DNA from: a virus
Taxonomy: Duplodnaviria; Heunggongvirae; Uroviricota; Caudoviricetes
Direction: 5' to 3' (one strand)
Length of the DNA: 64,000 bases
IMG/VR virus record: IMGVR_UViG_3300033076_001232
Coordinates: 142,435-206,434 of that record
The notes under the pieces were generated by a model. That model did no database searches, was not told the DNA's origin, and saw nothing but the letters and a program-made list of their open reading frames with translations. Shown in pieces: positions 3,918 to 53,316 of the stretch. Numbering within the stretch: the first letter of the stretch is position 1; each line of letters starts with the position of its first letter. The position numbers were made by a program, and so were the translations under genes.

Positions 3918-3968
3918 CTTTTTTGAAACATTTTAGATAAATACTAATATAAAAATTAAATTATTATT

Positions 3969-4340: not shown

Positions 4341-4347
4341 TAAAAAA

Positions 4348-4369: not shown

Positions 4370-4435
4370 ATGAGATAAATTTTTTAATCCCGCGACCAAA
4401 ATTTACATTTAGGTCAAATTACTAAAAATAACACT

Positions 4436-8840: not shown

Positions 8841-10415
8841 ATGAAGTTTTCAGAATTATCTCCGGATCAAATTTATGAGATTTCCAGAATATACTGGGAT
8901 CGAAAAATGGGATGGGATGACAGAATGGAAGCTCTCAGTGAATACCTAGGTAAATCAGAAAGAACCGTCCAGAAATGGATATCCAAGTTAGGTATTACCG
9001 AGAAATCTATTCAGGAATCTCCACAGCTAATTAGAGCTAAAGAAAAGAAATTTAATAAAAGAAAAAAGAGATTCATTGTTACATGGGCTCAGAACGATAC
9101 TCCAGTTCACGAGAACTTCATCTGTAACATTGAGGCATATGCGAATCATATCAATGCAGATATTCACGTTATAGCAGGAAGGTACAAGAATCCAACCTCA
9201 GTGTTTACAGACAAGAAATATGAGCAATGGTCAGATCGGATTATAAAGTACTTGGATGCTAACCGTCACGAAATCCACAAGTATATGTGGATAATGTCAG
9301 ACGTAAAAATCCAACCGACGGCAGTTGATCCTATGACAGGATTACAGGGAATGACCGGTATTAATTCCTGTATTTTTGGATCCCCCAAAGTTCAGTTGGA
9401 AACAATCCCAGTACTGGAGGGGAATTTACCGAAAATAATGATGACCACTGGAGCCTGTACGGTCAAGAACTATACAGATTCTAAATCTGGTAAAAAGGGA
9501 GAATTCCATCACACATTAGGTTTTGTCGTAGTAGAAATAAAAGACGATGAAACCTTTTTTGCTAGACAGGTGACCGCAAATGATTCTGGTGATTTTACTG
9601 ATCTTTATTACAAAGTTGAGTATGATCCTGACGAGGATCAAAGTAAAGTAGATAAGATCAACAGAATATCTGCAGCTATCTTAGGAGACGTTCACTATGG
9701 ACAGCATGACGAGGAGGTTTTAAATAAAACCCTAGAGATGTTTAAAAACATCAATCCAGATTATGTTGTTTTACATGATGTTTTCGATGGATTATCTATA
9801 AACCACCACGAGTCCAACGATCCATTTGTTCAATACAAGAGAGAGATGGAGGGAACAAACTCCCTTAGAAATGAGATCGATGCGATGTTAAATGGATTGG
9901 AGGTATTCAAGGATTATAAAACTGTAATAGTTAGAAGTAATCACGATGATTTCTTGGATCGATGGTTAAAGAATACTGATTGGAGAAAAGCTACCACCAT
10001 GAAGAACTCTATTGAATATATGGAGTTCAGTACCCTGCTATTAAAAGGAGAAGCACCGAAAGGGATTATACCTTATCTCATTAATCAGAAATTTCCAGAA
10101 TTTGTTACGCTAGGACGCAGTGATAGCTTTGTAGTTAGAGATTGGGAACTTGGACAACATGGAGATATTGGGTCCAATGGTGCAAGAGGATCTCTGTTAC
10201 AATTTAGAAAGCTTAATAGAAAATTGGTTGTTGGTCATTATCATTCACCGGGTAGGAAAGATGGAGCTTTGGCAGTTGGAACATCAACTAAACTTAGAGT
10301 TAATTATAACCTAGGACCAAGCGGTTGGCTACATTCTCACGTTATTATACATGATGATGGAAAAGCTCAGCATATCAATTTTATAAAAGGTGACTTCACA
10401 ACACTAAAACCATAA
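8841..10415 (+). CDS. HTH-containing protein fused to calcineurin-like metallophosphoesterase domain
   Basis: N-terminal SERTVQKWISKLGI HTH-like; C-terminal GDVHYG, VLHDVFDG, SNHD, GHYH motifs. Confidence 0.55.
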   Translation: MKFSELSPDQIYEISRIYWDRKMGWDDRMEALSEYLGKSERTVQKWISKLGITEKSIQESPQLIRAKEKKFNKRKKRFIVTWAQNDTPVHENFICNIEAYANHINADIHVIAGRYKNPTSVFTDKKYEQWSDRIIKYLDANRHEIHKYMWIMSDVKIQPTAVDPMTGLQGMTGINSCIFGSPKVQLETIPVLEGNLPKIMMTTGACTVKNYTDSKSGKKGEFHHTLGFVVVEIKDDETFFARQVTANDSGDFTDLYYKVEYDPDEDQSKVDKINRISAAILGDVHYGQHDEEVLNKTLEMFKNINPDYVVLHDVFDGLSINHHESNDPFVQYKREMEGTNSLRNEIDAMLNGLEVFKDYKTVIVRSNHDDFLDRWLKNTDWRKATTMKNSIEYMEFSTLLLKGEAPKGIIPYLINQKFPEFVTLGRSDSFVVRDWELGQHGDIGSNGARGSLLQFRKLNRKLVVGHYHSPGRKDGALAVGTSTKLRVNYNLGPSGWLHSHVIIHDDGKAQHINFIKGDFTTLKP

Positions 10416-19206: not shown

Positions 19207-19767
19207 ATGTCAAGAATAGTTTCATTTGATCAATTCAAAAGTAAGGCTGACAAAATGTCTGAAAAGAATTACAACACTAAAGAATCTCACAACGAAGGGC
19301 ATGAGCATGGCCACGAAGGGAGAGACCACCAACACTACATGTTTTTCCAAAACCTGCTTTCGATTAAACATCATATAGAAGAAATCCTTAATATGGATCC
19401 AAACCAAATTGATGAGTTATTGAAGAATGGTCACGATTGGGCTTGCGATCATATTGCAACCTCTAAGGATGACATTCAGGAAGTAGCTGAATGGGCAAGA
19501 AACGAGATGGAAATGGCAGGAGGTGAATCTCCAGAGCACACCGAAGAAGAGCCAGAAAACGTTATCGTTGATATCGAAGGAGACAACGATGAAGTTGAAG
19601 TAGAAGACGACGAAGAAGGTGAGGAAGACGAGGAAAGCGAAGAAGGTGAGGAAGAGGAAGAAGATAGCGAAGACGAAGAGGAAGAAGAGGAAGAAGAGGA
19701 ACAATATAACGAGGATGATGAGTACAACCTTGGTGAAGATTTCTCTGATGAAAACTACGAAGAATAA
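19207..19767 (+). CDS. His-rich then highly acidic (poly-E/D) protein
   Basis: HNEGHEHGHEGRDHQH then >60-aa E/D-rich low-complexity tail. Confidence 0.5.
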   Translation: MSRIVSFDQFKSKADKMSEKNYNTKESHNEGHEHGHEGRDHQHYMFFQNLLSIKHHIEEILNMDPNQIDELLKNGHDWACDHIATSKDDIQEVAEWARNEMEMAGGESPEHTEEEPENVIVDIEGDNDEVEVEDDEEGEEDEESEEGEEEEEDSEDEEEEEEEEEQYNEDDEYNLGEDFSDENYEE

Positions 19768-20589: not shown

Positions 20590-20943
20590 ATGAGGACGAG
20601 GAGTTTTCTGAAAAATACAGAAATTGATTTTATGGATAAAATTATAATTGTCTACTATCTAAATGTAGATGGACTTTCTCCTGAAGATGTAGCTAGATTT
20701 TGCTCGGAGACTGCCAGATCTTTGGAAAAAAAATTTGGCTCTAATCAGTACACCAATATAATTCTTCCGGTAAGAAATCGGGAAACCAGAGTTGATTGCA
20801 TAAATCCCAAACTTATCTCTGCAGAGGAATATAAAAATGTGGAAGAAATTTTAAAGAGAAACGAGCAAATAGTTAATATGGTTCTAAAGTCTGAATTAGG
20901 AAGACTTGGAGAAGAACTTGAATTTGAACAAATAAACAAATAA
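20590..20943 (+). CDS. Hypothetical protein (alternative start 20632)
   Basis: ORF track. Confidence 0.4.
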   Translation: MRTRSFLKNTEIDFMDKIIIVYYLNVDGLSPEDVARFCSETARSLEKKFGSNQYTNIILPVRNRETRVDCINPKLISAEEYKNVEEILKRNEQIVNMVLKSELGRLGEELEFEQINK

Positions 20944-20945
20944 AA

Positions 20946-21218
20946 ATGAATTACACAAATCCAAACGATCCGGATCACGTAGATGATCCAAAAGACTGGT
21001 TAAACTCGTCTCTTATATTTTCTAATGCACTTTCTCTAATATTAAGAGAGGGAGAAGGTATAGTTGTTGACATTAAGGGAGATATGAATTTCCCAGGAGA
21101 CGAATCTATAGAGAAGGTAATAGTTTTCCATAGAGAGAAAATGGTCAGAGTAATAGAATGTGAGGATGATTTAAAAGAGGGTACATGGGTAATCGTCCAT
21201 GATATAAATCCAAATTAG
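20946..21218 (+). CDS. Hypothetical protein
   Basis: ORF track. Confidence 0.45.
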   Translation: MNYTNPNDPDHVDDPKDWLNSSLIFSNALSLILREGEGIVVDIKGDMNFPGDESIEKVIVFHREKMVRVIECEDDLKEGTWVIVHDINPN

Positions 21219-21252
21219 GATTTTTAATCTCCGTACATCAAGAGTACTTTTG

Positions 21253-21367
21253 TTTCGTTAGAAGTCATTTCTGAATTGCTCTAGTAGATCTACTAGAAAT
21301 TATGGGACAAATCCTAGAAATTCTAGGATTTGTCCTAGAATTCAATCCGATATGAGTTTCTAACGAA
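21253..21367. promoter_or_regulatory. Nested palindromic region upstream of prs-like gene
   Basis: outer tttcgttagaa(21253-63)/ttctaacgaaa(21357-67); perfect 16-bp palindrome ctagtagatctactag (21281-96); 15-bp arms ggacaaatcctagaa / ttctaggatttgtcc (21305-35). Confidence 0.6.
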
Positions 21368-21425
21368 ATTTTTTTTATATCTTTATCTAATACAATGGAA
21401 CTAAAACAATTGTAAAATCAAAAAA

Positions 21426-22391
21426 ATGGCAGAAATACTAAATCTGGTAAATCCGAAAGATAGCTTATCCTTTAAATATGAGATAAGCAGGTTCCCTGAC
21501 GGCCAGCAATCATTAAGACTGATTGAGGATGGTTACAACACATTCAATTCACTAAAGAATGCGGCGATCAAAATAAAGTCAAGACTAAACAATTTCCAGG
21601 ATTTGGAAATTATCATTTGCGCAACACAAGCTCTTAGGGAGGTTGGAGTGAATGATATCAGTCTTTACATTCCTTATTGTGTTGGTGCTAGAAGCGACCG
21701 AAAATTTTCAGAGGGTGGAATCAATTATGTTAAGACGGTGATTGCACCTATTATCAATTCACAGGGCTACTCGAGTGTCACAATACTTGATCCACATTCT
21801 GATGTGCTTGAGGCTTGCATTAACAATTTCAAAAAGATAAACAATTTCAATTTAGTCAATTTTTCTTTGAAAGAAATCCTACTTGAAGATTGGAGAAAAA
21901 CTTCGGACGATATTGGTTTCGAAGGGTGGTACAAATACGACTGGCTAAAGAACCCGGACATTGTCCTAGTTTCACCCGATGCAGGTGCTTATAAGAAAAT
22001 TTTTGATGTTGCAGAAAATTTCAGAATTAAGAGCATAGCAACAGCGGTCAAAGTTCGAGATTTGGAAACTGGAAAGATCCTGAGAACGGAGGTTCCAAAT
22101 TTACCCATTAGCACAACAGGAAAAGAATTTAGGTATGTAATTATCGATGACATTTGTGATGGCGGTAGAACATTCATTGAATTGGCAAAAGCGATCAAAG
22201 CTAGTCGCCCAACTGCTGAGATCTATTTAGTGGTCACTCATGGAATCTTCAGTGCTGGGTATGCTGAATTAGGAAAATATTTTAATGGAATCTATTGTAC
22301 AAACTCGGTAAAGGACATCGTACACGATCCAGAAGACACCGACCTCGAAAGAGAAATGAAGGAAAAAGTAAAACAATTAAACGTATTCTAA
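21426..22391 (+). CDS. Ribose-phosphate pyrophosphokinase-family protein (Prs-like; possibly ADPR-pyrophosphate synthase type)
   Basis: FPDGQ, IPYCVGARSDRK (cf. IPYFGYARQDRR), ILDPHS, VSPDAGA, VIIDDICDGGRTF PRPP-binding loop. Confidence 0.7.
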   Translation: MAEILNLVNPKDSLSFKYEISRFPDGQQSLRLIEDGYNTFNSLKNAAIKIKSRLNNFQDLEIIICATQALREVGVNDISLYIPYCVGARSDRKFSEGGINYVKTVIAPIINSQGYSSVTILDPHSDVLEACINNFKKINNFNLVNFSLKEILLEDWRKTSDDIGFEGWYKYDWLKNPDIVLVSPDAGAYKKIFDVAENFRIKSIATAVKVRDLETGKILRTEVPNLPISTTGKEFRYVIIDDICDGGRTFIELAKAIKASRPTAEIYLVVTHGIFSAGYAELGKYFNGIYCTNSVKDIVHDPEDTDLEREMKEKVKQLNVF

Positions 22392-22747
22392 TGAGTAGCA
22401 TGGAATCGCACGTAGGTAAGCTACGTAAGGTACAAAGAAACGAAGGTCAGTCAGTTGAGGATTGGTGTAGAGAAAAATGTGAAGATAGAGGAGTTCCAAG
22501 TATGTTACCTGAGTTATATGACTCTTGGAAAGAAACCTTGAAGTATCATTTAGATCTATATGAGACTTACTTTTTTATTAACGATGAGATATGGGAGGTT
22601 TTTGATCATAAAGAGTTAGGTGATGATGACATCTATGAGATGACACCAAACCCAGATGGGACCATTTCATTTACGATGAGATTTTACAATGGTGGTACTT
22701 GCTTAAGTGAATGTATTGAGGAAGGTTTAGAACAATTAAATAAATAA
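22391..22747 (+). CDS. Hypothetical protein
   Basis: TAATG overlap with prs-like stop; MSSMESH start. Confidence 0.4.
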   Translation: MSSMESHVGKLRKVQRNEGQSVEDWCREKCEDRGVPSMLPELYDSWKETLKYHLDLYETYFFINDEIWEVFDHKELGDDDIYEMTPNPDGTISFTMRFYNGGTCLSECIEEGLEQLNK

Positions 22748-22753
22748 AAACAT

Positions 22754-23149
22754 ATGACACTTACAGAAATTTTATCGATCATCTTTATCCATTGGGTAGC
22801 TGATTTCATTTTTCAAGCTGAAGTATGGGCAGAGAATAAAAGCAAGAGTCTAAAACCACTTCTAAAACACACCTACACGTACTCTGCAATATGGCTAATC
22901 GTCGGATCACTTGCTAAAGCGACCGGAGCTATCCATTTGGAACCGGGAGTTCTCAGTCTTTTTGTCCTGATAACCTTTGTGCTTCATACAGTCACTGACT
23001 ATTTCACGAGTAAGATCGTTTCCAAAAGATTTGCTAATAAGCACTACGGAAGTCCTATACCAAATTTCGGAGCGTTTACAGTTATTGGATTTGATCAGGT
23101 TCTCCACTACACGCAATTATTTTTAACCTATTATCTTCTAACAAAGTAA
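22754..23149 (+). CDS. Small polytopic membrane protein
   Basis: 3-4 hydrophobic helices. Confidence 0.5.
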   Translation: MTLTEILSIIFIHWVADFIFQAEVWAENKSKSLKPLLKHTYTYSAIWLIVGSLAKATGAIHLEPGVLSLFVLITFVLHTVTDYFTSKIVSKRFANKHYGSPIPNFGAFTVIGFDQVLHYTQLFLTYYLLTK

Positions 23150-23694
23150 TGGAACAAACAGCAATAGAAACAGGATACAACGAGATTGAAGGAGATTTAA
23201 TCGAGTTTGCAAAACAGAGGATGTTTGATGTGATAGCACATGGATGCAATTGCATGAGCACGATGGGAGCTGGTATTGCTCCGCAAATGGCAAAAGCTTT
23301 CGGATGCGACCGATTCGAAATGGAAATGTGGGGGTCAACAATTGAAAAGCTCGGTAACATAGATTACCAGACTTTCGTAATTGGAGAATTTGCAATCTGG
23401 AACCTGGAAGATGCCAAGAATAATCGAAATGAACACGAACTAACTGTGGTTAATGCCTACACCCAATATAATTACGGTAGAAATCACGCAGATGGTCACG
23501 CAGCACCTTTTGATTATGATGCTTTCACTATTTGTGTCAGAAAGATGAACGAGGTGTTTAGAGGAAAGCATATTGGACTTCCGATGATAGGTGCAGGACT
23601 AGGAGGAGGTAATTGGAATAGAATCAAAGAGATCATTCGTTACGGACTCAGAGACTGTAAAATAACAGTTGTAATCTATAAACCTAAACAATAA
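23149..23694 (+). CDS. Macro-domain (ADP-ribose binding/processing) protein
   Basis: VIAHGCNCMSTMGAGIA and IGAGLGGGNW glycine-rich loops typical of macro domains. Confidence 0.55.
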   Translation: MEQTAIETGYNEIEGDLIEFAKQRMFDVIAHGCNCMSTMGAGIAPQMAKAFGCDRFEMEMWGSTIEKLGNIDYQTFVIGEFAIWNLEDAKNNRNEHELTVVNAYTQYNYGRNHADGHAAPFDYDAFTICVRKMNEVFRGKHIGLPMIGAGLGGGNWNRIKEIIRYGLRDCKITVVIYKPKQ

Positions 23695-24209
23695 TGAAAG
23701 TAATCAAACCTACAACCGAAAACCAATCAGTAAGATCCAACGATGTCTCGGTATTTTTAGCTGGCTCGATCGAAATGGGATCTGCTGAGGATTGGCAATC
23801 TAAACTCGAAGCCAAGTTAAAGGAAACTTTAGACCACGAGGATATTGTCCTATTCAACCCTCGGAGGGAATCCTGGGATTCCTCATGGGAGCAAAGAGAA
23901 ACAAATCCTGAATTCAATTACCAGGTTAATTGGGAATTATCAGCATTAGAAATGGCTGATATTATATTCTTGAATTTCTTACCCGACACAAAGTCTCCGA
24001 TATCTCTATTGGAGCTTGGAAAGTTTGCAAATAGCGGAAGAATGATTGTTTGCTGCCCTGATGGATTCTGTAGAAAAGGAAACGTCGAGATTGTCTGCAG
24101 TAGATATAACGTTCCTTTTTACGGATCTCTAGACGAAGCAATAGGATCATTGGTTACACGAATACACAAAACAAGAGTTTCTAAAAATTCTTTTTTTCTT
24201 TTACCCTAA
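23694..24209 (+). CDS. Nucleoside 2-deoxyribosyltransferase / Rcl-family protein
   Basis: VFLAGSIE N-terminal motif and SLLELGKFANSGRMIV catalytic-Glu motif. Confidence 0.55.
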   Translation: MKVIKPTTENQSVRSNDVSVFLAGSIEMGSAEDWQSKLEAKLKETLDHEDIVLFNPRRESWDSSWEQRETNPEFNYQVNWELSALEMADIIFLNFLPDTKSPISLLELGKFANSGRMIVCCPDGFCRKGNVEIVCSRYNVPFYGSLDEAIGSLVTRIHKTRVSKNSFFLLP

Positions 24210-24219
24210 ATACTAAACT

Positions 24220-24771
24220 ATGAAATTAAAATTTAACAGCTTAACAGCACGTTTATACAGATGGTTCTATATGGAATCAGGAATGCCGGAAAATCTATGT
24301 CCATATTTTTGGAAGCTAGTGTTAATGTGGCTATTAATGGTCCCTACCGTTATTCTCACACTCCCTGTTATTGTAACCAAGCAGAAACCAGATCATACTC
24401 TTTCCCGATTAATCTTAGGTTTTGCCTTATGGGTTTTTTTCGGAATTATAATTGTCGCTTTAGCCCCTATTACAATATTCTTTTGGGGATTTCTAGGTGA
24501 AAAATCAGTAATCGGAAACCTTCAATCTTTTGGTATTTTTCTTTGGGTAGTGATTCTGATGATTTCTATAATCTTTGGTGTGGTTCACCTTTTAAAAACG
24601 ATTAAAGATAGAAGAAATCATATAAGGAGAGAGTGGATTTGGGACCATAATGGTGACTATGTTAAAAATCCAGACTATATTCCTTATGAACCACAGACAA
24701 GCATTATAATTGAATTCATCAAGGCAAAGTATAAAAAGTACTGTCCAAAGATAGAATGGTCTAGAGACTAA
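24220..24771 (+). CDS. Polytopic membrane protein
   Basis: Multiple TM helices. Confidence 0.5.
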   Translation: MKLKFNSLTARLYRWFYMESGMPENLCPYFWKLVLMWLLMVPTVILTLPVIVTKQKPDHTLSRLILGFALWVFFGIIIVALAPITIFFWGFLGEKSVIGNLQSFGIFLWVVILMISIIFGVVHLLKTIKDRRNHIRREWIWDHNGDYVKNPDYIPYEPQTSIIIEFIKAKYKKYCPKIEWSRD

Positions 24772-24789
24772 CCTAAAATCAGAATAGAA

Positions 24790-25035
24790 ATGAATACCGA
24801 AAATCAGAAAGTAAACAAGGAATATCAAATGTTAACCGTCCGTGAGCACTTCGCAGCTATGGCAATGCAAGGAATGCTGGCTAATATCGATCAATCATAC
24901 GGTAAACCGAACGTAAATCAATCATCGATGGAGGATTCTTTAAGAAGAGAACAGCAGTTCATTGATGACGTAGCAATTAAAGCAGTTAGATATTCCGATG
25001 CTTTATTAAGAGCATTAGAAACTAAATCAGAATAA
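24790..25035 (+). CDS. Small hypothetical protein
   Basis: ORF track. Confidence 0.4.
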   Translation: MNTENQKVNKEYQMLTVREHFAAMAMQGMLANIDQSYGKPNVNQSSMEDSLRREQQFIDDVAIKAVRYSDALLRALETKSE

Positions 25036-25036
25036 A

Positions 25037-25504
25037 ATGAAAAGGTTAAGTAATAAAATAAAATATTCAGATAAAATTTTAGATAATTTATCTTCATTAA
25101 ATAACAAAGGTGATGGTGAGTTTATGGATGCTGAATGTGTTGACTTGTGTGATGCACTCAACTCAATGAAGGGAGTCACAACAAATGAATCTTGTTGTGG
25201 ACACAATCATCAACCTTATCGTATTTGGTTTAAGTGTGATTCATTAGAACCTTTAACATTTATTCAATCTTGTATTGATAGAAGGTATTGGGAATATGGC
25301 AATGAATGGTACATTGAACCTTCCATTTCAGATACAAAACCATTTCTAAACTTTGCCTTGACTAGCAAGTCTACTGATTTGAAAACCATCGTGTCACAGG
25401 TTGAAAGTATGATTGATATTTTCAATTACTATTTAAACCACGAGAATAGATTTGAAATGCTGGGTCAAAAATATGAGAATTTTATTTTTACCGAAGCTGA
25501 ATAA
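25037..25504 (+). CDS. Cys-rich hypothetical protein
   Basis: ORF preceded by aataaaATGa context. Confidence 0.45.
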   Translation: MKRLSNKIKYSDKILDNLSSLNNKGDGEFMDAECVDLCDALNSMKGVTTNESCCGHNHQPYRIWFKCDSLEPLTFIQSCIDRRYWEYGNEWYIEPSISDTKPFLNFALTSKSTDLKTIVSQVESMIDIFNYYLNHENRFEMLGQKYENFIFTEAE

Positions 25505-25531
25505 AACACTAACTAAATAAATCACAATAAG

Positions 25532-25834
25532 ATGAAAATACCACAGAAGATTAGAGTCAACTATTTTGACCTGGAAGTTCTAATGGCTCAAATGCTGGGA
25601 AAAGCTGAGCAATTCGAAAATGATGATATTGAAAATTTAGAAGAGGAATTCTACGAAAAATTTGATGTTGATTCAGAGCAGTTTCAAAAAATAGTAGAGC
25701 ATCTGATGCCATACACCGTATTATCTAAATCTGATCTTTCTGATGAAATAAGAATAGGATTCGTGAATCACAATGAGGGTGTCTATATAGTAAAAGAAAA
25801 TATCCAGCTAGAGAAGGTCATCAAGGAAGCTTAA
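25532..25834 (+). CDS. Hypothetical protein
   Basis: aataagATGa context. Confidence 0.45.
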   Translation: MKIPQKIRVNYFDLEVLMAQMLGKAEQFENDDIENLEEEFYEKFDVDSEQFQKIVEHLMPYTVLSKSDLSDEIRIGFVNHNEGVYIVKENIQLEKVIKEA

Positions 25835-25877
25835 AAATAGGAACATTGGAAGAAGTTTATAACGAAATCAAAATAAG

Positions 25878-26153
25878 ATGATAAAAACAAGAGAAAAATT
25901 ATTGAATGGAAATAATTGGTGTCATATCTATGTAGATGATGATGGGATAACTAATTATCATAATACTAAAACAAACGAAACCTATAGGGTAATACCTGAT
26001 AAATCGGCTTTTGGTTTTCATTTAGAGTATTTTAAAGATGCTGAATTAAAAGCAAGAAATAGTGTTTCGTTTGATGAGATGAAATGTATTGCTCTGTTAG
26101 CAGGTAGCAACAATCTGCTGAAAAACTTAGTCGGTGGAGAAAAAACTGTTTAA
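25878..26153 (+). CDS. Hypothetical protein
   Basis: aataagATGa context. Confidence 0.45.
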   Translation: MIKTREKLLNGNNWCHIYVDDDGITNYHNTKTNETYRVIPDKSAFGFHLEYFKDAELKARNSVSFDEMKCIALLAGSNNLLKNLVGGEKTV

Positions 26154-26163
26154 TTAGAATAAG

Positions 26164-26337
26164 GTGGAAAAAATACAAGATGTTAAGATTGGTCAAAAAA
26201 TAATCTCTCCGAGAAACGGTAAAGGGATCATAACCTCCAAAACAAAAAGAACAATAACCGTTGTTTTCGAAAATGGAAATACTTCGAAAGTAACTTACAA
26301 ATATAATGATGCGTATTTTTACGCATCAGATTTTTAA
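26164..26337 (+). CDS. Small hypothetical protein (57 aa, GTG start)
   Basis: Gap-filling ORF; contains 8-bp hairpin gatgcgta/tacgcatc near 3' end. Confidence 0.25.
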   Translation: MEKIQDVKIGQKIISPRNGKGIITSKTKRTITVVFENGNTSKVTYKYNDAYFYASDF

Positions 26338-26354
26338 CCTTCGATCGGAATAAA

Positions 26355-26507
26355 ATGGCAGGACTATTTTTATTTACCTTTATTTTTATCATCGCACAAT
26401 TTTTTGAGAAGTCAGATTATGAAAGAATGAAAGATGCTCAAAAGCTAACTTCGTTTACTAAACAAGAAGCAGAAAATTACTACATCAAAACATTTAAATC
26501 AAAATAA
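26355..26507 (+). CDS. Small TM peptide (50 aa)
   Basis: ggaataaaATGg context; hydrophobic N-terminus; stop abuts next start. Confidence 0.35.
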   Translation: MAGLFLFTFIFIIAQFFEKSDYERMKDAQKLTSFTKQEAENYYIKTFKSK

Positions 26508-26508
26508 G

Positions 26509-27180
26509 ATGAAAAATATACACTTATTACCAACAGAAAATTATAAACAAGATTACACTTTACAAAGTGGAGAAGTTGTAGAAGTCGTTAGATTAGGTCA
26601 GTTAATAAAAAATAGTGAAACTAATGAATTATTAATAAATAAAAATTCACATTGGGCAGCTTCATGTGATACTGACGTTCTGGTTCCTCATCATATTTAT
26701 ATTACTTCGGATGAACAAATTAAAGATAGAGATTGGTACATTTATATAAAAGATGGTTTATTAATACAATATAAAAAAGAATTTAATCCGTCTGCCGCAA
26801 GTGCTTCATACAATAAAAAAATTATTCTAACAACAGACCAAGACTTAATTAAAGATGGTGTACAACCTATTGATGATGAGTTTTTGGAATGGTTTGTTAA
26901 AAATCCAAGTTGTGAAAAGGCTGAGATTGAAAATGGCTGGGGTTTAGAAGTCGACATTCAAACTCCTTATTACAAAATAATTGTCCCAAAAGAAGAACAA
27001 TTACCAACAAAGTGGTTCAATACAGAAGAAATTGAAACATGGATTGGTAATTCAGATGAAGGTGGTAGAGGTAAGTTGATTGTACTTCATCAGTGTGGTG
27101 AAAATAAAGAAGAACTTATCAGTCAGTTAACTACAATGATTGATGGTTTAAAAAATGGATTTGAATACTTCGCACAATAA
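26509..27180 (+). CDS. Hypothetical protein
   Basis: ORF track. Confidence 0.5.
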   Translation: MKNIHLLPTENYKQDYTLQSGEVVEVVRLGQLIKNSETNELLINKNSHWAASCDTDVLVPHHIYITSDEQIKDRDWYIYIKDGLLIQYKKEFNPSAASASYNKKIILTTDQDLIKDGVQPIDDEFLEWFVKNPSCEKAEIENGWGLEVDIQTPYYKIIVPKEEQLPTKWFNTEEIETWIGNSDEGGRGKLIVLHQCGENKEELISQLTTMIDGLKNGFEYFAQ

Positions 27181-27191
27181 ATTAAAATAAT

Positions 27192-27638
27192 ATGAAACAA
27201 ATTAGTAAATCAGAATGGTTTGTATTAGACAGACCACTTGCGGAGCCAAATGTAAAATGGAGTGACGAGGATGGTGAATATCACATAGAAAGATACGTTT
27301 ATCAAGATGGTGCTGTCATTTGGTTTGGTTGTGATACTAATTGGAAGAAAGAGACTGGTGGTAATTGGACAGTACTCGCAACAAATACTGATGCTAAACC
27401 ATTAGAAAAATACTTACCCGAAATAGTGTATGGTAATGATAGAACATATTGGAAAGAATGTGAAATGCCGATATACGAGAAACTTTATTTAGGATTAAAA
27501 TCGGAATCTTGTTCTTGTAATAACGGGATAATAGTATGTCCAGGATGCGAGGGTGAGAAAAAATCGGAATTCGGCGTGTGTGCCGGGTGCCTCGGAGAAG
27601 GTAATGTTACGTGCGGTAAGTGCGGCGGAAATAATTAA
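27192..27638 (+). CDS. Protein with DnaJ-type CxxCxGxG zinc-finger repeats at C-terminus
   Basis: CPGCEGEK..CAGCLGEG..CGKCGG. Confidence 0.5.
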   Translation: MKQISKSEWFVLDRPLAEPNVKWSDEDGEYHIERYVYQDGAVIWFGCDTNWKKETGGNWTVLATNTDAKPLEKYLPEIVYGNDRTYWKECEMPIYEKLYLGLKSESCSCNNGIIVCPGCEGEKKSEFGVCAGCLGEGNVTCGKCGGNN

Positions 27639-27649
27639 ATTTGGATAAG

Positions 27650-27769
27650 ATGAGAAAAACATTAATAATAATTTCACTACCATTTAGATGGTTAGCTTAT
27701 CAGTTCCTTCAGTGGCTATTAAGAAGACACGATGACTATAACGAGAACTTTAAAAAGTATAACCTTTAA
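27650..27769 (+). CDS. Micro-ORF (39 aa)
   Basis: ataagATGa context; gap-filling. Confidence 0.25.
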   Translation: MRKTLIIISLPFRWLAYQFLQWLLRRHDDYNENFKKYNL

Positions 27770-27781
27770 AATCGAAATAAT

Positions 27782-27973
27782 ATGAAGATAGTAAGCTTAT
27801 ATCCATATGATGATGTATACCAAGTAGTAAGTGAAGATGAAGAAACAATTTACTATCAAGGTAGCAAAAAGGATTGTGAAAATAGGATTAAAAAAATTGA
27901 GCTAAATGAGCAAATGAGAGATAACTTAAAAGCAAAACTTTTTCTCACATCTATACTACACCGAAACATTTAA
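27782..27973 (+). CDS. Small hypothetical protein
   Basis: aataatATGa context. Confidence 0.4.
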   Translation: MKIVSLYPYDDVYQVVSEDEETIYYQGSKKDCENRIKKIELNEQMRDNLKAKLFLTSILHRNI

Positions 27974-27984
27974 ATCGGAATAAA

Positions 27985-28092
27985 ATGACAATAGATATAA
28001 TTTTGATACCAATATGGTTGTTTTCATCAGGTGTTTTGGTAGGTATATTAATTGCTGAAAGCATTATTAACAAAAAGAAAAACAAATCATAA
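27985..28092 (+). CDS. Micro-ORF TM peptide (35 aa)
   Basis: ggaataaaATGa context; single TM helix. Confidence 0.3.
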   Translation: MTIDIILIPIWLFSSGVLVGILIAESIINKKKNKS

Positions 28093-28096
28093 TAAG

Positions 28097-28225
28097 ATGA
28101 CGGCAATACTTATTAAAGCTGAAATGACCGATGAACAGCTAGAGGCTCTCGTTTCGGAGATCACGAGAATAGCAGAAGGAATAGGAATTAACTTAACAAT
28201 ACAATCGAAGGAAGATGAGCTTTAA
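28097..28225 (+). CDS. Micro-ORF (42 aa)
   Basis: aataagATGa context. Confidence 0.25.
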   Translation: MTAILIKAEMTDEQLEALVSEITRIAEGIGINLTIQSKEDEL

Positions 28226-28373
28226 AGCAATTAAAACCATATTTTGGTTCCGATTTTTTTCAGTATTTGACGTGCTGTTCTCGGAAAGATTCGAACTAAC
28301 TACTTGGGATAAAGAAGGTAGACAAACTTCTAAAACAAAATTCTCCAGAAGGGAGATAAAAGAAAAACTTTAA
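28215..28373 (+). CDS. Micro-ORF (52 aa)
   Basis: Gap-filling ORF overlapping previous by 11 nt. Confidence 0.25.
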   Translation: MSFKAIKTIFWFRFFSVFDVLFSERFELTTWDKEGRQTSKTKFSRREIKEKL

Positions 28374-28387
28374 TTAAAATACAGAAA

Positions 28388-28570
28388 ATGGGATTTTTAT
28401 CAAACTTAGTAAGCGCAACAGTAAAGACAGCACTAACCCCAGTGGCAGTCGTTAAGGATGTTGTTAATGTAGTAAAAGGGGAAGAAGCTGATTCAACTAA
28501 GAATCTTTTAAATAGTGCAGGAGAAGATCTTAAGGATGCAGGAGACGATTTAGTTGACGGCAACGTCTAG
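28388..28570 (+). CDS. Small hypothetical protein (60 aa)
   Basis: ORF track. Confidence 0.35.
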   Translation: MGFLSNLVSATVKTALTPVAVVKDVVNVVKGEEADSTKNLLNSAGEDLKDAGDDLVDGNV

Positions 28571-28641
28571 ATCAATTTTTTTCCCCCGTAAAGCAGTTTT
28601 AATTTTGGGTTCTAAATTAGGAATCCGCTAAAAAATAAAGA

Positions 28642-29046
28642 ATGAAATCTTTCAGTAAATTAGATGTAGATAAAGTCATCAGGATCGAATTAATCGAGCC
28701 GAAGTTATCTAGTTATAAATGGCTACCAAAGAAACAAAAAACATTTCTCTTTGGTCTCATCAAAAGAAACCGATGGAACTCCGAAGGCTTTTATCGTCAT
28801 GGATGCTATCAAGAATGTTACGAAAGCGGTTGCTTTGACGCAACCCCGGACAGCGAGAGGTGGCTTACAGAAAGAGGATACTATGTCTACCCAGATAAGA
28901 GTGTTTGGCATCCTGCTACCGTCCACGTAGATCTTGATCACGGGGTAAGATCTACAATAGCCTTTGGTAATACGGATGAAGCAAAGGAGTGGATTTCAAA
29001 ATTGGAGGAAATGTGTGGCAAAAAGTTTATCAACTACGGAAAATAA
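28642..29046 (+). CDS. Hypothetical protein
   Basis: ORF track. Confidence 0.45.
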   Translation: MKSFSKLDVDKVIRIELIEPKLSSYKWLPKKQKTFLFGLIKRNRWNSEGFYRHGCYQECYESGCFDATPDSERWLTERGYYVYPDKSVWHPATVHVDLDHGVRSTIAFGNTDEAKEWISKLEEMCGKKFINYGK

Positions 29047-29050
29047 AAAA

Positions 29051-29422
29051 ATGGAGATATTATTTAATCACGCCTTTATAAGAGTATTAGTTTACCCTAA
29101 AAAGAGATACAATGGCTCATGTCTCTATATCAAAAAAGGTTATAAAAATCTAGTCGGCCGCAAGTTTTGGATTTTTCCGGAATATGAAAAAATAGACTAT
29201 GCAGTTTTAACAACTTGGCCGGAGAGATTTGTATGTAGTGTTGAAGACTATGAGAGCGATGAAAAATACATTGAGAACAACGTAATCTATTACAAGCCTC
29301 ACTGCACAATAATCATGAATGACAAATCTGCCAGATCTGTAATTTTTGATACCCCCGAGGAACTGGAAAACTATGTGTCCGAACTTAAAGGAGGAATTCC
29401 ACACCTAGTGATAGAAGAATAA
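29051..29422 (+). CDS. Hypothetical protein (start trimmed to ATG 29051)
   Basis: In-frame ATG immediately after upstream stop. Confidence 0.4.
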   Translation: MEILFNHAFIRVLVYPKKRYNGSCLYIKKGYKNLVGRKFWIFPEYEKIDYAVLTTWPERFVCSVEDYESDEKYIENNVIYYKPHCTIIMNDKSARSVIFDTPEELENYVSELKGGIPHLVIEE

Positions 29423-29448
29423 AAAGTAAAATCGTAAATTCAAGTTAT

Positions 29449-31020
29449 ATGAAAGGAATAAACCCAGCCCTTCTAACCGACGGTTATAAAACAGGGCACC
29501 ATCAGCAATACCCGGAGGGAACAACTCTAGTGTATTCTAACTTTACCCCAAGAAGTAACAAGTATGCACCTAAGGGATGCGATCATGTTGTTTCTTTTGG
29601 TCAGCAACTTATCATGAAGCAGATTCACGAGAGCTTCCAAAAAGATTTCTTCGATCAGCCTAAAGATGAGGTGTGCTCGGAAATTAAGAGAGAGCTTTCT
29701 CTTTATCTAGGAGTCGATTACGATGTTAGTCACTTCGAAGCCCTTCACGATCTTGGATATTTACCTATTAAGGTTAAAGCAATCAAAGAGGGAACTTTAG
29801 TGCCAATCAAGGTTCCTGTCTTGACTATCTATAATACGGATCCCAACTTTTACTGGGTAACCAACTATTTGGAAACACTAATCTCAAATCTTCTTTGGAA
29901 GCCAATGACTTCCGCAACAATTGCTTACCAATACAAGAGAGTTCTTACCGATTGGGCTCTTAAAACCGACAAGGAAAACAAAACATTTGTTCAGTGGCAA
30001 GGTCACGATTTCTCTATGAGAGGTATGGATTCAGTGGATGCTGTAATTTCTTCCGGTCTTGGACACCTAACATCTTTTACTGGAACAGATTCCCTTCCTG
30101 CAATTTACGGAGCTCGTAAGTATTACGGAGCGGAAGGATTTGTCGCAGCGTCAGTGCCAGCAACAGAACACTCGGTAATGTGTGCTGGCGGGAAAGAGGA
30201 TGAGATTGAGACATTCCGAAGACTGATTAAGACTTACCCTGCTGGTATCTTGTCAGTAGTATCTGATACTTGGGATTTGTGGAAAGTGTGTACGGAGCAT
30301 GTGGTTACTTTGAAAGAAGAGATTTTGGCTCGTGATGGTAAGTTGGTTATTCGTCCTGATAGTGGTGACCCGGTTGATATCCTTTGCGGTACAGAAGATT
30401 ATACAAAATCTAAATTACCTTATGATGAGGTTAAAGATGTAGAAGTTATGCACCCTAGCCAAAAAGGTGTAATTGAACTTCTTTGGGATGTATTTGGAGG
30501 AACTGTTAACGAACAAGGTTACAAAGTACTTGATCCACATATCGGAGCAATCTATGGCGATAGCATTACTATCGATCGTGCTGAGCAAATCTGCAGCAGA
30601 TTAGCTTCAAAGGGATTTGCATCAACAAACGTAGTGCTTGGGGTAGGATCTTTCACTTACCAGTACAACACCCGCGATACATTTGGTTTTGCAATGAAGG
30701 CAACTTATGTTGAGGTTAAGGTTCCTAAATATGGTGATTTTGCGGACCAAGGGTTGAATACCGAAATTGAAGGTAGAGAAATCTTCAAAGATCCAATCAC
30801 CGATGATGGAACGAAGAAATCTGCAACTGGCTTACTAAGCGTAGTTAGCCGTCCAGGTGAAGGTTTAACCCTAGTTGATAAGTGCGACTGGAAACATGAA
30901 AATGTCGGAGCATTGGAAACAATCTACCACGACGGAAAATCTAGCTCCGAGATCACTCTTTCTGAAATTAGAAACAATCTTGAATTTTCTTTGATTAAAG
31001 AGAGAGAAATTATTTTTTAA
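29449..31020 (+). CDS. Nicotinamide phosphoribosyltransferase-family protein (NAMPT/NadV-like; possibly Namat-type)
   Basis: VPATEHSVM, SFTGTDS, IRPDSGDPV motifs conserved with NAMPT. Confidence 0.7.
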   Translation: MKGINPALLTDGYKTGHHQQYPEGTTLVYSNFTPRSNKYAPKGCDHVVSFGQQLIMKQIHESFQKDFFDQPKDEVCSEIKRELSLYLGVDYDVSHFEALHDLGYLPIKVKAIKEGTLVPIKVPVLTIYNTDPNFYWVTNYLETLISNLLWKPMTSATIAYQYKRVLTDWALKTDKENKTFVQWQGHDFSMRGMDSVDAVISSGLGHLTSFTGTDSLPAIYGARKYYGAEGFVAASVPATEHSVMCAGGKEDEIETFRRLIKTYPAGILSVVSDTWDLWKVCTEHVVTLKEEILARDGKLVIRPDSGDPVDILCGTEDYTKSKLPYDEVKDVEVMHPSQKGVIELLWDVFGGTVNEQGYKVLDPHIGAIYGDSITIDRAEQICSRLASKGFASTNVVLGVGSFTYQYNTRDTFGFAMKATYVEVKVPKYGDFADQGLNTEIEGREIFKDPITDDGTKKSATGLLSVVSRPGEGLTLVDKCDWKHENVGALETIYHDGKSSSEITLSEIRNNLEFSLIKEREIIF

Positions 31021-31067
31021 TTCCGTAAACGGGTTATTAATTTGCATAAATTTTTAAAATATAATAC

Positions 31068-32939
31068 ATGAACACAGCTTTAATTTTTGACTACTGGTGG
31101 ACAATCATACCAGTTTTAGCGTTGATCTTCTATAAGTTCACGCTTCGATTCTTCTTCGGTATGGTAATAGTACCAGAGGACAAAATTGGTTTAGTTACCA
31201 AGAAATTCGTACTCTTCGGAGCTAACAGATCACTTCCCGATGGTAAGATCGTAGCTCTAAATGGTGAACCTGGTTACCAGGCAGACACATTAGCTCCTGG
31301 TCTATATTGGGCTTTCTGGGTTTGGCAATACTCTATAGAGATGCAGAATCTGGTAGTTATCGAGAAGGGAAAACTTGGTTTAGTAACAGCGAAGGACGGT
31401 GTTCCATTACCTACTGGATCAATTTTAGCTAGACACGTAGAGTGTGATAATTTCCAAGATACTCGTGCATTCTTAACCAATGGAGGTCAAAGAGGTAAGC
31501 AGGTTGGATATCTTAACAACGGGGTATATCGTATCAACACTCAACTCTTTGATGTATACCACGCTGATATTACATACATCGAAGATGGTATGGTCGGTGT
31601 TATTACAACTCTAGACGGACGTCCATTAGATCAAGGTAACATCGCAGGTTCTCTGGTAGAAGGACACAATAACTTCCAGGATTTTGATTCATTCTTAGAG
31701 AATGGAGGACAAAGAGGTCTACAGATTCAGGTGATCCAGGCCGGTAGCTATTCATTAAACCCTTGGGCTATTGAGGTAGAGAAAAAAGAAATGACCTCAA
31801 TTCCTATCGGTCACGTTGGTGTTGTTATCTCCTACGTTGGCGATGAAGGTATTGATCAAACCGGTGACACTTTTAAACATGGTAACATTGTTAAGAAAGG
31901 ACAAAAAGGAGTTTGGATCTCTCCGCTAGATCCTGGTAAATATGCAATCAACCCCTACACACAAAAGATCGAAGTTGTCCCAACAACTAACCTTGTTTTG
32001 AACTGGGCAAATGCAAGAACAGAGTCTCACGCATTAGATAAGAACCTAAGCACAATCACGGTTCGTTCTAAAGACGGTTTCCCATTCAATTTGGATGTAT
32101 CCCAGATTATCCACATTCCTTCTACTGAAGCACCTAAGGTAATTGCTCGATTTGGTTCTATGTCAAACCTTGTCTCTCAGGTACTTGAGCCAACTATCGG
32201 TAACTACTTCCGTAACTCTGCACAGGATTCAGATGTTATTGCTTTCTTAAGCACACGTCAAGCCAGACAAAATGCTGCTAAAGATGCAATCAGCAAAGTT
32301 CTTGACGAGTACAACGTACACGCTGTAGATACTCTAATTGGAGACATCACACCTCCTGCAGAACTTATGAAAACTCTAACCGATCGTAAGATCGCTCAGG
32401 AGGAAGAGGTTACATTTGAAACTCAGAAGAAAGCTCAGGATCAACGTAAAACTCTAGAGTCAGCTAAAGCTCTTGCAGATATGCAGGGACAAATGGTACA
32501 AGCTCAACAATCGGTAGAGATCTCACAGAGACAAGCCGAGGCAGAGGTTAAGAAATCAGAAGGTGAAGCCAAAGCGATGGAGCTTAAGGCTGGAGCTCAG
32601 GCAAAAGCTAAAAAGCTGATGGCTGAAGCCGATGCTTCTCAGATTAAACTTACCGGTGAGGCTGAAGCAAGCAAGATCGAGAAAATCGGTAGAGCAACAG
32701 CAGAAGCTTATCAATTACAGGTACAAGCAATGGGCAACGACAACTTTGCTAAGCTTAAAGTTACTGAGGAGATAGGTAAAAATGGAATCAAGATTATTCC
32801 AGAAATCCTAATCTCAGGAAGCGAAGGTGGCAATGGCCCAATAAGCGGATTGCTTGGAATGGAGCTTCTTAATCAAATAAGAAACAGAGAGGCTGACACT
32901 TCCTCCGGACAAGACAAAATCCAAGAGGATAAAAAATAA
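31068..32939 (+). CDS. SPFH/flotillin-like membrane protein with internal repeats and A/E/K-rich coiled-coil tail
   Basis: N-terminal TM helix; repeated NFQD..FL.NGGQRG.Q units; flotillin-like AEAE/KAK-rich C-terminus. Confidence 0.5.
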   Translation: MNTALIFDYWWTIIPVLALIFYKFTLRFFFGMVIVPEDKIGLVTKKFVLFGANRSLPDGKIVALNGEPGYQADTLAPGLYWAFWVWQYSIEMQNLVVIEKGKLGLVTAKDGVPLPTGSILARHVECDNFQDTRAFLTNGGQRGKQVGYLNNGVYRINTQLFDVYHADITYIEDGMVGVITTLDGRPLDQGNIAGSLVEGHNNFQDFDSFLENGGQRGLQIQVIQAGSYSLNPWAIEVEKKEMTSIPIGHVGVVISYVGDEGIDQTGDTFKHGNIVKKGQKGVWISPLDPGKYAINPYTQKIEVVPTTNLVLNWANARTESHALDKNLSTITVRSKDGFPFNLDVSQIIHIPSTEAPKVIARFGSMSNLVSQVLEPTIGNYFRNSAQDSDVIAFLSTRQARQNAAKDAISKVLDEYNVHAVDTLIGDITPPAELMKTLTDRKIAQEEEVTFETQKKAQDQRKTLESAKALADMQGQMVQAQQSVEISQRQAEAEVKKSEGEAKAMELKAGAQAKAKKLMAEADASQIKLTGEAEASKIEKIGRATAEAYQLQVQAMGNDNFAKLKVTEEIGKNGIKIIPEILISGSEGGNGPISGLLGMELLNQIRNREADTSSGQDKIQEDKK

Positions 32940-32954
32940 AAAACACAATTTAAA

Positions 32955-32982
32955 AGATAGGTCTTCGGACCTATCTTTTTTT
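32955..32982 (+). terminator. Rho-independent terminator (UUCG tetraloop)
   Basis: 9-bp stem agataggtc/gacctatct, loop ttcg, T-run. Confidence 0.85.
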
Positions 32983-32995
32983 AATTTAATTCGAT

Positions 32996-33154
32996 ATGGA
33001 GAAGCAGAAAAAAATTGATGCAGCAATCAAGGACACAAAGTTAAGATTGAATCATACAGAGCAAGAGATTATGCTCTTACTTCGTGAGAAGGAAACTCTA
33101 AAGAAACAATTAGATGCTTTAGAGTGTATAAGAGACGACAAAAATCTTGAATAA
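32996..33154 (+). CDS. Small coiled-coil protein (52 aa)
   Basis: Gap-filling ORF; stop abuts next ATG. Confidence 0.3.
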   Translation: MEKQKKIDAAIKDTKLRLNHTEQEIMLLLREKETLKKQLDALECIRDDKNLE

Positions 33155-33538
33155 ATGAACAAGCTTGAAAAGAAAGATATCCAAGCTATGCACGGATTAA
33201 CAGTAGGAGAACTTAGAAGATTTCTGATGGATCATCCCGAAATAGAGGATGATCAACCTGTTTTAATTGAGAGAGTCGAGGATGTCTACTTTGAAAAAAA
33301 TGGTTGGGGTGTTTATCTCAAAGAGGGTGAAGCCTATCATAATGCTCTCTCATTCAGCAGTAAAATGAGGGAGGAAATCGAAAGACGAAAAAGAGGTGAA
33401 GAACCTGAATATGGTATGGAGGATCCATCTCTTTATATCAAGGATCCGACCGAGGAAGACATGAATCAATATGTACGTGCTTGGTGCTGTGTTAAGTATA
33501 AAGACGACAACGCTTTATTTATAGATTTACATTATTAG
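33155..33538 (+). CDS. Hypothetical protein
   Basis: ORF track. Confidence 0.45.
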   Translation: MNKLEKKDIQAMHGLTVGELRRFLMDHPEIEDDQPVLIERVEDVYFEKNGWGVYLKEGEAYHNALSFSSKMREEIERRKRGEEPEYGMEDPSLYIKDPTEEDMNQYVRAWCCVKYKDDNALFIDLHY

Positions 33539-33539
33539 G

Positions 33540-33713
33540 ATGTCTGTCAAAGAAAAAGAAATACCTTGTCATTTCGACCACAACGGTGAATGCCTTATTT
33601 GTGACTGTTGGCCTGACAACTGTGCCTATGATAGATTTCTAAATGAAGACTATAAATGGGAAACGAAAGAGGAACTGGAAGAGATGTTTAAAGATTACAA
33701 AAAAGAAAAATAA
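33540..33713 (+). CDS. Small Cys-rich (zinc-binding-like) protein, 57 aa
   Basis: CHFDHNGECLICDCWPDNC; gap-filling. Confidence 0.35.
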   Translation: MSVKEKEIPCHFDHNGECLICDCWPDNCAYDRFLNEDYKWETKEELEEMFKDYKKEK

Positions 33714-33714: not shown

Positions 33715-34065
33715 ATGAGCGGAGCAATTACAGAAACACCAGAAAGATGGTCGATTGTTAAAATCACTTCGGAGGGAAAAACATACTACAAGGTTTTCGG
33801 AAGCTGGAGAGGTGGATATCTCAGCGGCGATAGCTGGAGAATGAACAGTGGAATCGTTAAAGTTGAAGAAGACGAAGAGGCATTCTATTTTCTAGGTGAA
33901 TCTGGCTCCAAGTATAAGTGTGGCAAGGATCTCTATGGAACAGCTAGTTCTTACACCGAGGGGATTCTTTACACCATCAAGGATAAAGCACCAAAAGCAA
34001 ATGCTATTCTTGAAATCATGTCAGAGGAAACCGATTGGATCAACCTTCTAAGTGAATCCCAGTGA
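33715..34065 (+). CDS. Hypothetical protein
   Basis: Start trimmed to MSGAIT. Confidence 0.45.
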   Translation: MSGAITETPERWSIVKITSEGKTYYKVFGSWRGGYLSGDSWRMNSGIVKVEEDEEAFYFLGESGSKYKCGKDLYGTASSYTEGILYTIKDKAPKANAILEIMSEETDWINLLSESQ

Positions 34066-52717: not shown

Positions 52718-52756
52718 AATCCCGGAGTTATTAACAACTTCGGGATTTTTTTTTGG
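52718..52756 (+). terminator. Rho-independent terminator
   Basis: 10-bp stem aatcccggag/cttcgggatt (one G-U), T9. Confidence 0.7.
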
Positions 52757-53312: not shown

Positions 53313-53316
53313 AAAA

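Follow-up and report, generated by a model that had tools for sequence, protein, structure and literature searches.

The RNase III sites in the early region of phage T7 are single irregular hairpins, unbranched and with no U-tract after them. In T4-type phages, promoter-early stem-loop (PeSL) cassettes join a stem-loop terminator and a promoter in one unit (PMC2839356, PMC4122927). Here we describe a nested palindromic element that shares features with both, as well as with factor-independent (intrinsic) terminators and with the operators of dimeric repressors. It lies upstream of a prs-like gene in a 64,000-nt stretch of a phage genome (hereafter the window; positions 142,435 to 206,434 of IMG/VR record IMGVR_UViG_3300033076_001232, Caudoviricetes). 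The nested palindromes are most likely the DNA image of one plus-strand RNA transcribed in the direction of the genes, and we assign a probability of about 0.5 to the reading that this RNA is a branched intrinsic terminator or insulator at the 5' edge of a block of accessory genes. The coordinates of the features are collected in Table 1.

The element lies in a 207-nt gap (21219-21425) between orf90, an open reading frame (ORF) of 90 aa (20946-21218), and the prs-like gene (21426-22391). In agreement with a preliminary description of the locus, made from the letters of the window, the gap proved to be non-coding. A small 17-codon ORF within it (21303-21356, MGQILEILGFVLEFNPI) was considered and rejected, as it is not conserved: its ATG is lost and a stop is gained in the relative L057. 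The palindromes themselves are real and beyond chance. The 11-bp outer inverted pair is perfect and ends at 21368, one base further than first described, and the 31-nt palindrome was recovered with both 15-nt arms perfect, while the inner palindrome, reported as 16 bp, is present but extends to 18 bp. The 15-nt arms constitute the longest perfect inverted repeat of the window, compared with longest arms of 8-12 nt in 40 dinucleotide-preserving shuffles. The gap also has the lowest folding energy per nucleotide among 30 gaps of at least 60 nt, below that of the transfer-messenger RNA (tmRNA) region too, and CTAG occurs five times in a 100-nt stretch here, compared with at most three times elsewhere in the window. 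Its length, which had been taken to make it one of the few long intergenic spaces, is not especially rare; a crude gene map contains several gaps of at least 200 nt.

Five distinct variants of the gap were compared: the window itself, the L057 type, the L059 type, L064 and the L094 type. The relatives that share prs (L057, L058, L063 and L066; L059 together with L104-L106) have a prs gene 83-87% identical to that of the window, L064 is a single JGI contig, and the two contigs L094 and L095 were reached through orf90. In all of these close relatives the element was retained in a gap of 206-211 nt. More distant relatives, with prs or orf90 at most 70% identical, had neither synteny nor the element and were unusable for covariation. 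Among the close relatives the element was 80-93% identical, well above the identity of prs at third codon positions (63-68%; the corresponding range for orf90 was 79-93%), and the 57 nt on its 3' side (21369-21425) were 95% identical in L057 and L059.

The RNAalifold consensus comprises three helices, namely the closing helix P1 with 17 pairs and the hairpins P2 and P3 with 7 and 16 pairs, respectively. The fold had a z-score of -6.3 for the whole gap and of about -9 for a 136-nt core. Across the five variants, 99.5% of the cells in paired columns were paired, compared with 33-47% when the 3' partners were slid by one to three columns; the sole unpaired cell is taken up by a shifted bulge in the fold of the L059 sequence itself. 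Three pairs changed on both sides, one by a C-G to U-A exchange in P3 that is carried by L057, L059 and L064, and two in distal P1 of L059. One-sided changes that preserved pairing affected another four pairs, three of them P1 pairs in L059. The sequence of P2, including its GAUC loop, was identical in five out of five variants, and covariation neither supports nor contradicts this hairpin. A short additional helix, P1b, formed when L059 and L064 were folded individually, and both of its tetramers occur in all five variants; it was left out of the covariation count because the alignment register shifts.

The polarity of the wobble pairs gives an indication of the strand. Read as plus-strand RNA, the alignment contains G·U at six positions (one at the foot of P1, three elsewhere in P1, and one each at the base and the apex of P3) compared with one A·C cell. 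The G·U at the base of P3 is found in all variants, and the apical one replaces A-U in L094 only. Such pairs separate the strands because the minus strand, or a DNA dyad, would show C·A mismatches at the same sites. In L094, the underlying A to G change leaves the large palindrome asymmetric as DNA, and the RNA pair remains as G·U. The predicted folds were also more stable on the plus than on the minus strand, with -50.7 versus -47.8 kcal/mol for the 136-nt core of the window, -46.3 versus -45.9 kcal/mol for L057 and -47.7 versus -42.1 kcal/mol for L059, a gap of 5.6. Finally, each of the five variants has seven to eight T immediately after the 3' arm of P1; the minus strand has no T-run after the stem. 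We read the palindromes as a plus-strand RNA because of this G·U polarity, the better plus-strand folds and the T-run that occurs on the plus strand only. The evidence for the strand is good but not conclusive, given a small sample in which the informative changes come mostly from L059.

Further genomic copies of the dyads, a prospect raised in the preliminary description, were sought in the window, and neither the dyads nor the outer repeat had any beyond chance (blastn of the gap included). A 104-kb contig of a relative held no other copy of either dyad. Exact-pattern scans returned unrelated chance matches only in IMG/VR, and orthologous sites plus one chance match only in the JGI metagenomes. 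Covariance model R1, run on the window with filters off, recovered the element alone at 153.6 bits; its next-best matches, which include the simple terminators described below, had E values of at least 0.37, and across about 405 kb of relatives it found the orthologous element only. At the gathering threshold, Rfam 15, whose families include riboswitches, Flavo-1 and phage RNAs, matched the tmRNA as the sole family in the window and nothing at the element, where a local scan to E = 10 gave only chance microRNA and small RNA matches of at most 24 bits. INPHARED contained no close DNA relative. A retron msr/msd region was considered and rejected: for all the likeness of the outer repeat to a1/a2, no reverse transcriptase domain is encoded by orf90, prs or the genes around them. 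As judged from the sequences compared, the RNA structure is real, under selection and present in a single copy.

The element appears to have the position and 3' end of a terminator, because related loci have a simpler structure at the same place. In L008 and L009, whose prs is 60% identical, a simple hairpin and T6 lie upstream of prs and are followed by TTTTTTATATCTTT, the same TTTTTTATATCTTT that comes after the element in the window, and L010 and L017 likewise have a hairpin and a T-run upstream of prs. The remaining perfect inverted repeats of the window with arms of at least 12 nt (at 4343, 19788, 32952 and 53311) are simple hairpins followed by 6-9 T and, to judge from this form, ordinary intrinsic terminators. 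Like such terminators, the element has a stable helix followed by seven to eight U on the transcribed strand, after one gene and before the next promoter. Its body is unusual: unlike in intrinsic terminators, the helix next to the U-tract is AU-rich and holds a 94-nt insert with two hairpins where a 3-8-nt loop would be usual, the sequences of the inner hairpins are invariant, and the foot of the helix and a promoter-like box overlap.

Downstream of the element follows a block of accessory genes encoding prs, a DUF3307 membrane protein, a macro/phosphatase-like protein, a nucleoside 2-deoxyribosyltransferase-like protein, several ORFans and NAMPT. Contigs L096-L103, reached through the orf90 protein cluster, pass from 21235 to 31011-31027 and into a Band_7 gene; by blastn, L096 aligns to window 20913-21235 and then to 31011-32510, the two matches sharing 17 nt. 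Since these contigs run straight across at a 17-nt stretch common to both ends, 21236-31027 is an indel. The block looks like an accessory module for the salvage of NAD and phosphoribosyl pyrophosphate (PRPP) that is gained or lost by recombination between promoter repeats. In L099, the 5' arm of the outer repeat is joined at its final base (21263) to 30946 within NAMPT; 21264-30945 are missing and the element is destroyed. L094 and L095 keep the gap up to the ATG and continue with a homologue of window 33715-34062 (21427-33707 missing), the junction being an A-run microhomology just before the ATG. With several indels between near-identical phages, the stretch is, by this comparison, a hyperplastic region. 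Because L096-L103 lack it along with the block and the L099 junction destroys it, we regard the element as the regulatory head of a dispensable module and as not essential to the phage; because L094 and L095 keep the gap before a different gene, it appears to go with the gap rather than with prs itself. Breakpoints lie in the 21221-21235 repeat, once at 21263 and once at the prs ATG. The earlier suggestion of a recombination site is of indirect relevance, as breakpoints fall near or in the outer parts of the element; there are none inside the inner palindromes. Another indel distinguishes L094-L106 from the window at 20631-20912, where gene 20632-20943 is removed.

A promoter-like cassette directly precedes P1. 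Its TACTTTTG fits TAnnTTTG, which is the -7 box of Flavobacterium sigma-A promoters and stands at -12 to -5 there (PMC9723704), and because of this spacing the predicted transcription start is G21257. The architecture of the cassette (a T-run, CCGTA or CCGCGA, 8-10 nt, then TAnnTTTG, TAnnTTTA or TAnnTTGY) recurs in five copies in the window, compared with about one expected for a loose version of the pattern in shuffles, and the four other copies stand 19-34 nt before a start codon. This makes it a candidate promoter class of the phage with a -7 box of Bacteroidota type. TAnnTTTG as a general intergenic motif was rejected, as it is not enriched alone (4 of 65 matches non-coding) and only the CCGTA-containing cassette is specific. 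The 34 nt before P1 differ at six sites between the window and the L059 type; every one of these is a spacer or "n" position, and the T-run, CCGTA, TA and TTTG are untouched (hypergeometric p ~0.004). Boxes that are kept while spacers vary are the pattern expected of a working promoter, and the motifs suggest such activity here. A second -7-like box, TATCTTTA, follows the U-tract and fits TAnnTTTG at seven of eight positions, that is, at five of the six specified bases. In 317 kb comprising the window and related loci, TATATCTTT was about 5-fold and TATCTTTR about 3-fold enriched within 60 nt upstream of start codons, and permuted controls were not. The A-rich leader after this box (21386-21425) is unchanged in L094 and L095, in front of a different gene.

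If the element is a terminator, RNA polymerase arriving from orf90 would transcribe P2 and P3, which would fold first; the 3' arm of P1 would then zip up flush to the U8, the orf90-derived transcript would be released, and the local promoter or promoters would drive the block. Transcription begun at G21257 would leave the first 5 nt of P1 out of the RNA and place GAAA between the stem and the U-tract. In the predicted fold from 21257, P1 is kept from that base on, and GAAA and the U-tract are single-stranded. Transcripts started locally might escape into prs, or might give an RNA of about 115-120 nt by inefficient termination, so that the outcome would depend on where transcription began.

Several points weigh against this interpretation. 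P1 is AU-rich, with 3 G-C among its 12 basal pairs, and closes a branched insert, whereas the other terminators of the phage are simple hairpins of 8-14 bp; efficient termination is for this reason not assured. P1 lacks the form of a simple G+C-rich hairpin (a stem of about 5-14 bp with a loop of 3-8 nt beside the U-tract), and a terminator consensus scan gave no plus-strand call at the element. Termination alone needs neither an invariant P2 loop nor a nearly invariant P3, and a conserved promoter-like box directly upstream is odd for a pure terminator. The promoter reading, in turn, leans indirectly on the assignment of the host to the Bacteroidota. Moreover, with five variants only and most informative changes in one of them, covariation is thin, and related sequences can outdo shuffles without any structure. 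A branched, AU-rich terminator with invariant inner hairpins would be unusual, but on present evidence not a new kind of system. Because termination leaves the near-invariance of P2 and P3 unexplained, we kept small-RNA and protein-binding readings under consideration.

One such alternative, unlikely but to be taken seriously, is that the element specifies a phage RNA of about 115-120 nt with a three-way junction and its own host-type promoter. It could act in trans, for which it may be, for example, a protein decoy, an anti-defence RNA or a regulatory RNA, or it could be an overlap of promoter and terminator that discriminates transcripts by origin, in which upstream transcripts with the whole of P1 may stop and local ones without the foot of P1 may pass. 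As an independent small-RNA gene with its own trans function, of which we are equally doubtful, it would start at about G21257 and end at U8, prs would be transcribed separately from the second box, and the RNA might serve in protein binding, as a decoy or by base pairing. The cassette that adjoins P1, with its promoter-type conservation, is in line with this, as is the fact that structured RNA and U8 take the place of the ATG that follows each of the other four copies. The second box would leave prs a 5' untranslated region of about 36 nt, near the published medians of 24 nt in F. psychrophilum and 32 nt in B. thetaiotaomicron (PMC9723704). The sequence invariance of P2 and P3 also exceeds what pairing needs. 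However, a start at 21257 forbids five basal P1 pairs and GAAA before the U-tract makes a poor terminator, whereas the complementarity spans those 5-6 nt, which are relevant only to transcripts begun further upstream. In addition, no Rfam family, second copy, target or partner was identified, and an RNA lost in L096-L103 and L099 is dispensable. Either a small RNA or an origin-discriminating overlap would, if true, be more interesting than a terminator.

A role as cis-acting 5' leader of the module mRNA is more doubtful still. The leader might be an attenuator or antitermination target, a 5' stabiliser whose terminal stem shields the long mRNA from 5'-end-dependent decay, or an RNase III-type site. 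It is consistent with an element that lies between a promoter-like box and prs and is inherited with the block; a start at 21257 would put the 5' end flush with the stem, and P1 and P1b together form a near-continuous duplex of about 20 bp. On the other hand, conserved helices with variable junctions are the opposite of ligand-binding riboswitches, Rfam gave no match, and in L094 and L095 the element stands before an unrelated gene. The only alternative hairpin, of attenuator type (21319-21342), was rejected because it is not conserved. It would form through the third CCTAGAATT(C) copy, which the preliminary description had rightly noticed in the window; this copy reads CCTAAATTTC in L057 and CCTAGATTAC in L059, and is probably non-functional because neither relative conserves it. 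Like phage RNase III hairpins and 3'-end stabilisers, the element would be a long irregular intergenic RNA duplex in a polycistronic transcript; unlike the RNase III hairpins, it is branched and is followed by a U-tract.

Operators in double-stranded DNA, favoured in the preliminary description, are improbable. The 18-bp and 31-bp dyads would bind dimeric regulators that block the upstream or control the downstream promoter. As at the operators of dimeric repressors, the two dyads are perfect, of operator size and placed beside promoter-like boxes, here between two of them; P2 is invariant including its centre and P3 nearly so, and CTAGAA occurs at 21293, 21314 and 21335, a spacing of 21 nt. 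Yet the substitutions appear to keep RNA pairs rather than half-sites. The outer stem covaries although no operator model needs an outer stem, the one-sided changes are of the G·U type on the plus strand, and of the changes in P3 one affects both arms together (C/G to T/A) and the other, A to G in L094, is asymmetric. The CTAGAA repeat becomes CTAGGA in L094 and CTAAAT in L057, and a reading of these motifs as iteron-like repeats was rejected, as the second and third copies vary among the variants. No second site for either dyad was found in the window or the 104-kb contig, and no cognate gene: Pfam searches of 30 proteins (among them the product of the gene at 8841, the neighbours of the element and the genes of the module) revealed no helix-turn-helix or other DNA-binding domain. 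The 8841 product, earlier named as a helix-turn-helix candidate, has no Pfam match and was assigned by PHROG and phage tblastn to the T5 A1-like "DNA transfer protein". The element is probably not a protein-binding DNA operator, and what remains of the initial functional proposal is a functional, non-coding element related to transcription. A replication origin at the element, suggested as another option, was rejected, since the GC skew shows no inflection near 21 kb.

It is very improbable that a small mobile or recombinogenic palindromic element (a cassette of PeSL-like kind, or one resembling a miniature inverted-repeat transposable element) was inserted behind a promoter: the 11-bp terminal inverted repeats, the T-rich flanks with a possible TTTT target duplication, the normal promoter and leader of about 52 nt that would remain without 21253-21368, and a hyperplastic setting with three different indels in close relatives are compatible with insertion, but the element is strictly single-copy in the window, the relatives, IMG/VR and the JGI metagenomes, and no relative has prs with a precisely empty site. 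The flanks TTTTG and TTTTTTTT hold little information on a target-site duplication. None of the indel junctions coincides with an end of the element; they occur within the 15-17-nt promoter repeat, at the ATG or in the element's interior.

The PeSL cassettes of T4-type phages merit a closer comparison. Like these, the gap (21221-21425) would combine a stem-loop terminator, a promoter, as suggested by its motifs, and a leader within a hyperplastic stretch, and the breakpoints of indels are located in short intergenic promoter motifs that occur repeatedly (here 21221-21235 and 31013-31027). A PeSL is recognised by many similar copies of a cassette of about 100 bp per genome. In the window, unlike this, a promoter-like part of about 32 nt recurs in five copies, and stem-loop and leader are single-copy in the 64 kb. 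The promoter type also differs (TAnnTTTG, not sigma-70), and the order is promoter, structure, promoter. With a single-copy stem-loop and a different promoter type, the element was not filed as a PeSL. Should the terminator or insulator reading hold, the locus would be a worked example of how an auxiliary metabolic block is packaged in uncultured freshwater jumbo phages, probably of Bacteroidota: the block would carry its own insulator and promoters and be exchanged by recombination between short promoter repeats, and the logic of PeSL cassettes would extend to a different lineage of phages and hosts.

Table 1 Positions of the palindromes, predicted helices, promoter-like boxes and accessory block in the window
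Feature	Position	Strand	Description
Outer inverted repeat	21253-21263 / 21358-21368		TTTCGTTAGAA / TTCTAACGAAA; 11 bp, perfect
Inner palindrome	21281-21296; full extent 21280-21297		CTAGTAGATCTACTAG at 21281-21296; 18 bp in full, perfect
Large palindrome	21305-21335		GGACAAATCCTAGAA-A-TTCTAGGATTTGTCC; two perfect 15-nt arms, 1 central base
Third CCTAGAATT(C) copy	21333-21342	+	Possible alternative 10-bp hairpin with 21319-21328
P1, 5' arm of closing helix	21252-21268	+	Includes TTTCGTTAGAA
P1, 3' arm of closing helix	21352-21369	+	Includes TTCTAACGAAA
P1b, 5' strand AUUG	21275-21278	+	Can pair with CAAU 21343-21346 below the junction
P1b, 3' strand CAAU	21343-21346	+	Within invariant CAATCC
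P2 hairpin	21280-21297	+	7-bp stem 21280-21286 / 21291-21297, loop GAUC
P3 hairpin	21303-21337	+	16-bp stem 21303-21318 / 21322-21337, 3-nt loop
U-tract, T8	21369-21376	+	Directly 3' of P1; T7 in L094/L095
Upstream cassette (promoter-like)	21221-21252	+	TTTTTAATCT-CCGTA-N9-TACTTTTG, directly 5' of P1
Parts of upstream cassette	21221-21228; 21231-21235; 21245-21252	+	T-run/AAT; CCGTA, then 9-nt spacer; -7 box TACTTTTG
Cassette copies	4381-4411, 21221-21252, 28576-28607, 31013-31045, 63489-63520	+	All intergenic
Second -7-like box	21378-21385	+	TATCTTTA, inside TATATCTTTA (21376-21385)
Leader	21386-21425	+	A-rich, without Shine-Dalgarno, up to prs start codon 21426
Accessory block	21236-31027	+	9,792 nt: element, prs, on to NAMPT; absent from L096-L103
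Left direct repeat	21221-21235	+	5' half of upstream cassette, 18 nt upstream of element
Right direct repeat	31013-31027	+	TTTTTTAATTCCGTA; 5' half of cassette before Band_7 gene (31068)

The source of the window points to a large uncultured (jumbo) phage, because the genes of the first 53 kb or so are almost all on one strand, a tmRNA gene is present, and the gene content includes thymidylate synthase, RNase HII, a T5 A1-like protein, NAMPT and prs. The prs protein was also found on NODE_15 (221,881 bp) of ENA ERZ4212978 and on six more metagenomic contigs, and the gap was identical in seven out of seven. The A1-like protein (8841-10415) has its nearest counterparts in phages of Maribacter, Cellulophaga and Flavobacterium, and start codons across the window are preceded by A-rich leaders without Shine-Dalgarno sequences, for which reasons the host likely belongs to the Bacteroidota.

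The tmRNA gene is full-length (3429-3920, plus strand; RF00023, 87.3 bits), and ARAGORN predicts the tag peptide EEVELAVAA*. A plus-strand ORF that is cut by the start of the window (38-1111) stands 2.3 kb upstream of it and matches PHROG 850, "RNA-binding protein" (E 1e-117), with DUF2828 and DUF7788. A 186-aa protein encoded at 19207-19767 (plus strand) has a C-terminal half made up almost entirely of Glu/Asp runs and no family match. Gene orientation switches at 52718-53343, where the cumulative GC skew turns as well, and the switch carries convergent hairpin and T-run terminators, one in the 52746 region (plus strand) and a bidirectional one at 53308-53343. In the window and related loci, the 60 nt before start codons were enriched about 8-fold in CATATAAWT (11 of 28 occurrences). 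Sites of this motif lie about 20-30 nt upstream of prs in L012-L030 and at 8810, 14270, 31045 and 52800 in the window, and it may mark another class of promoters, such as late ones.

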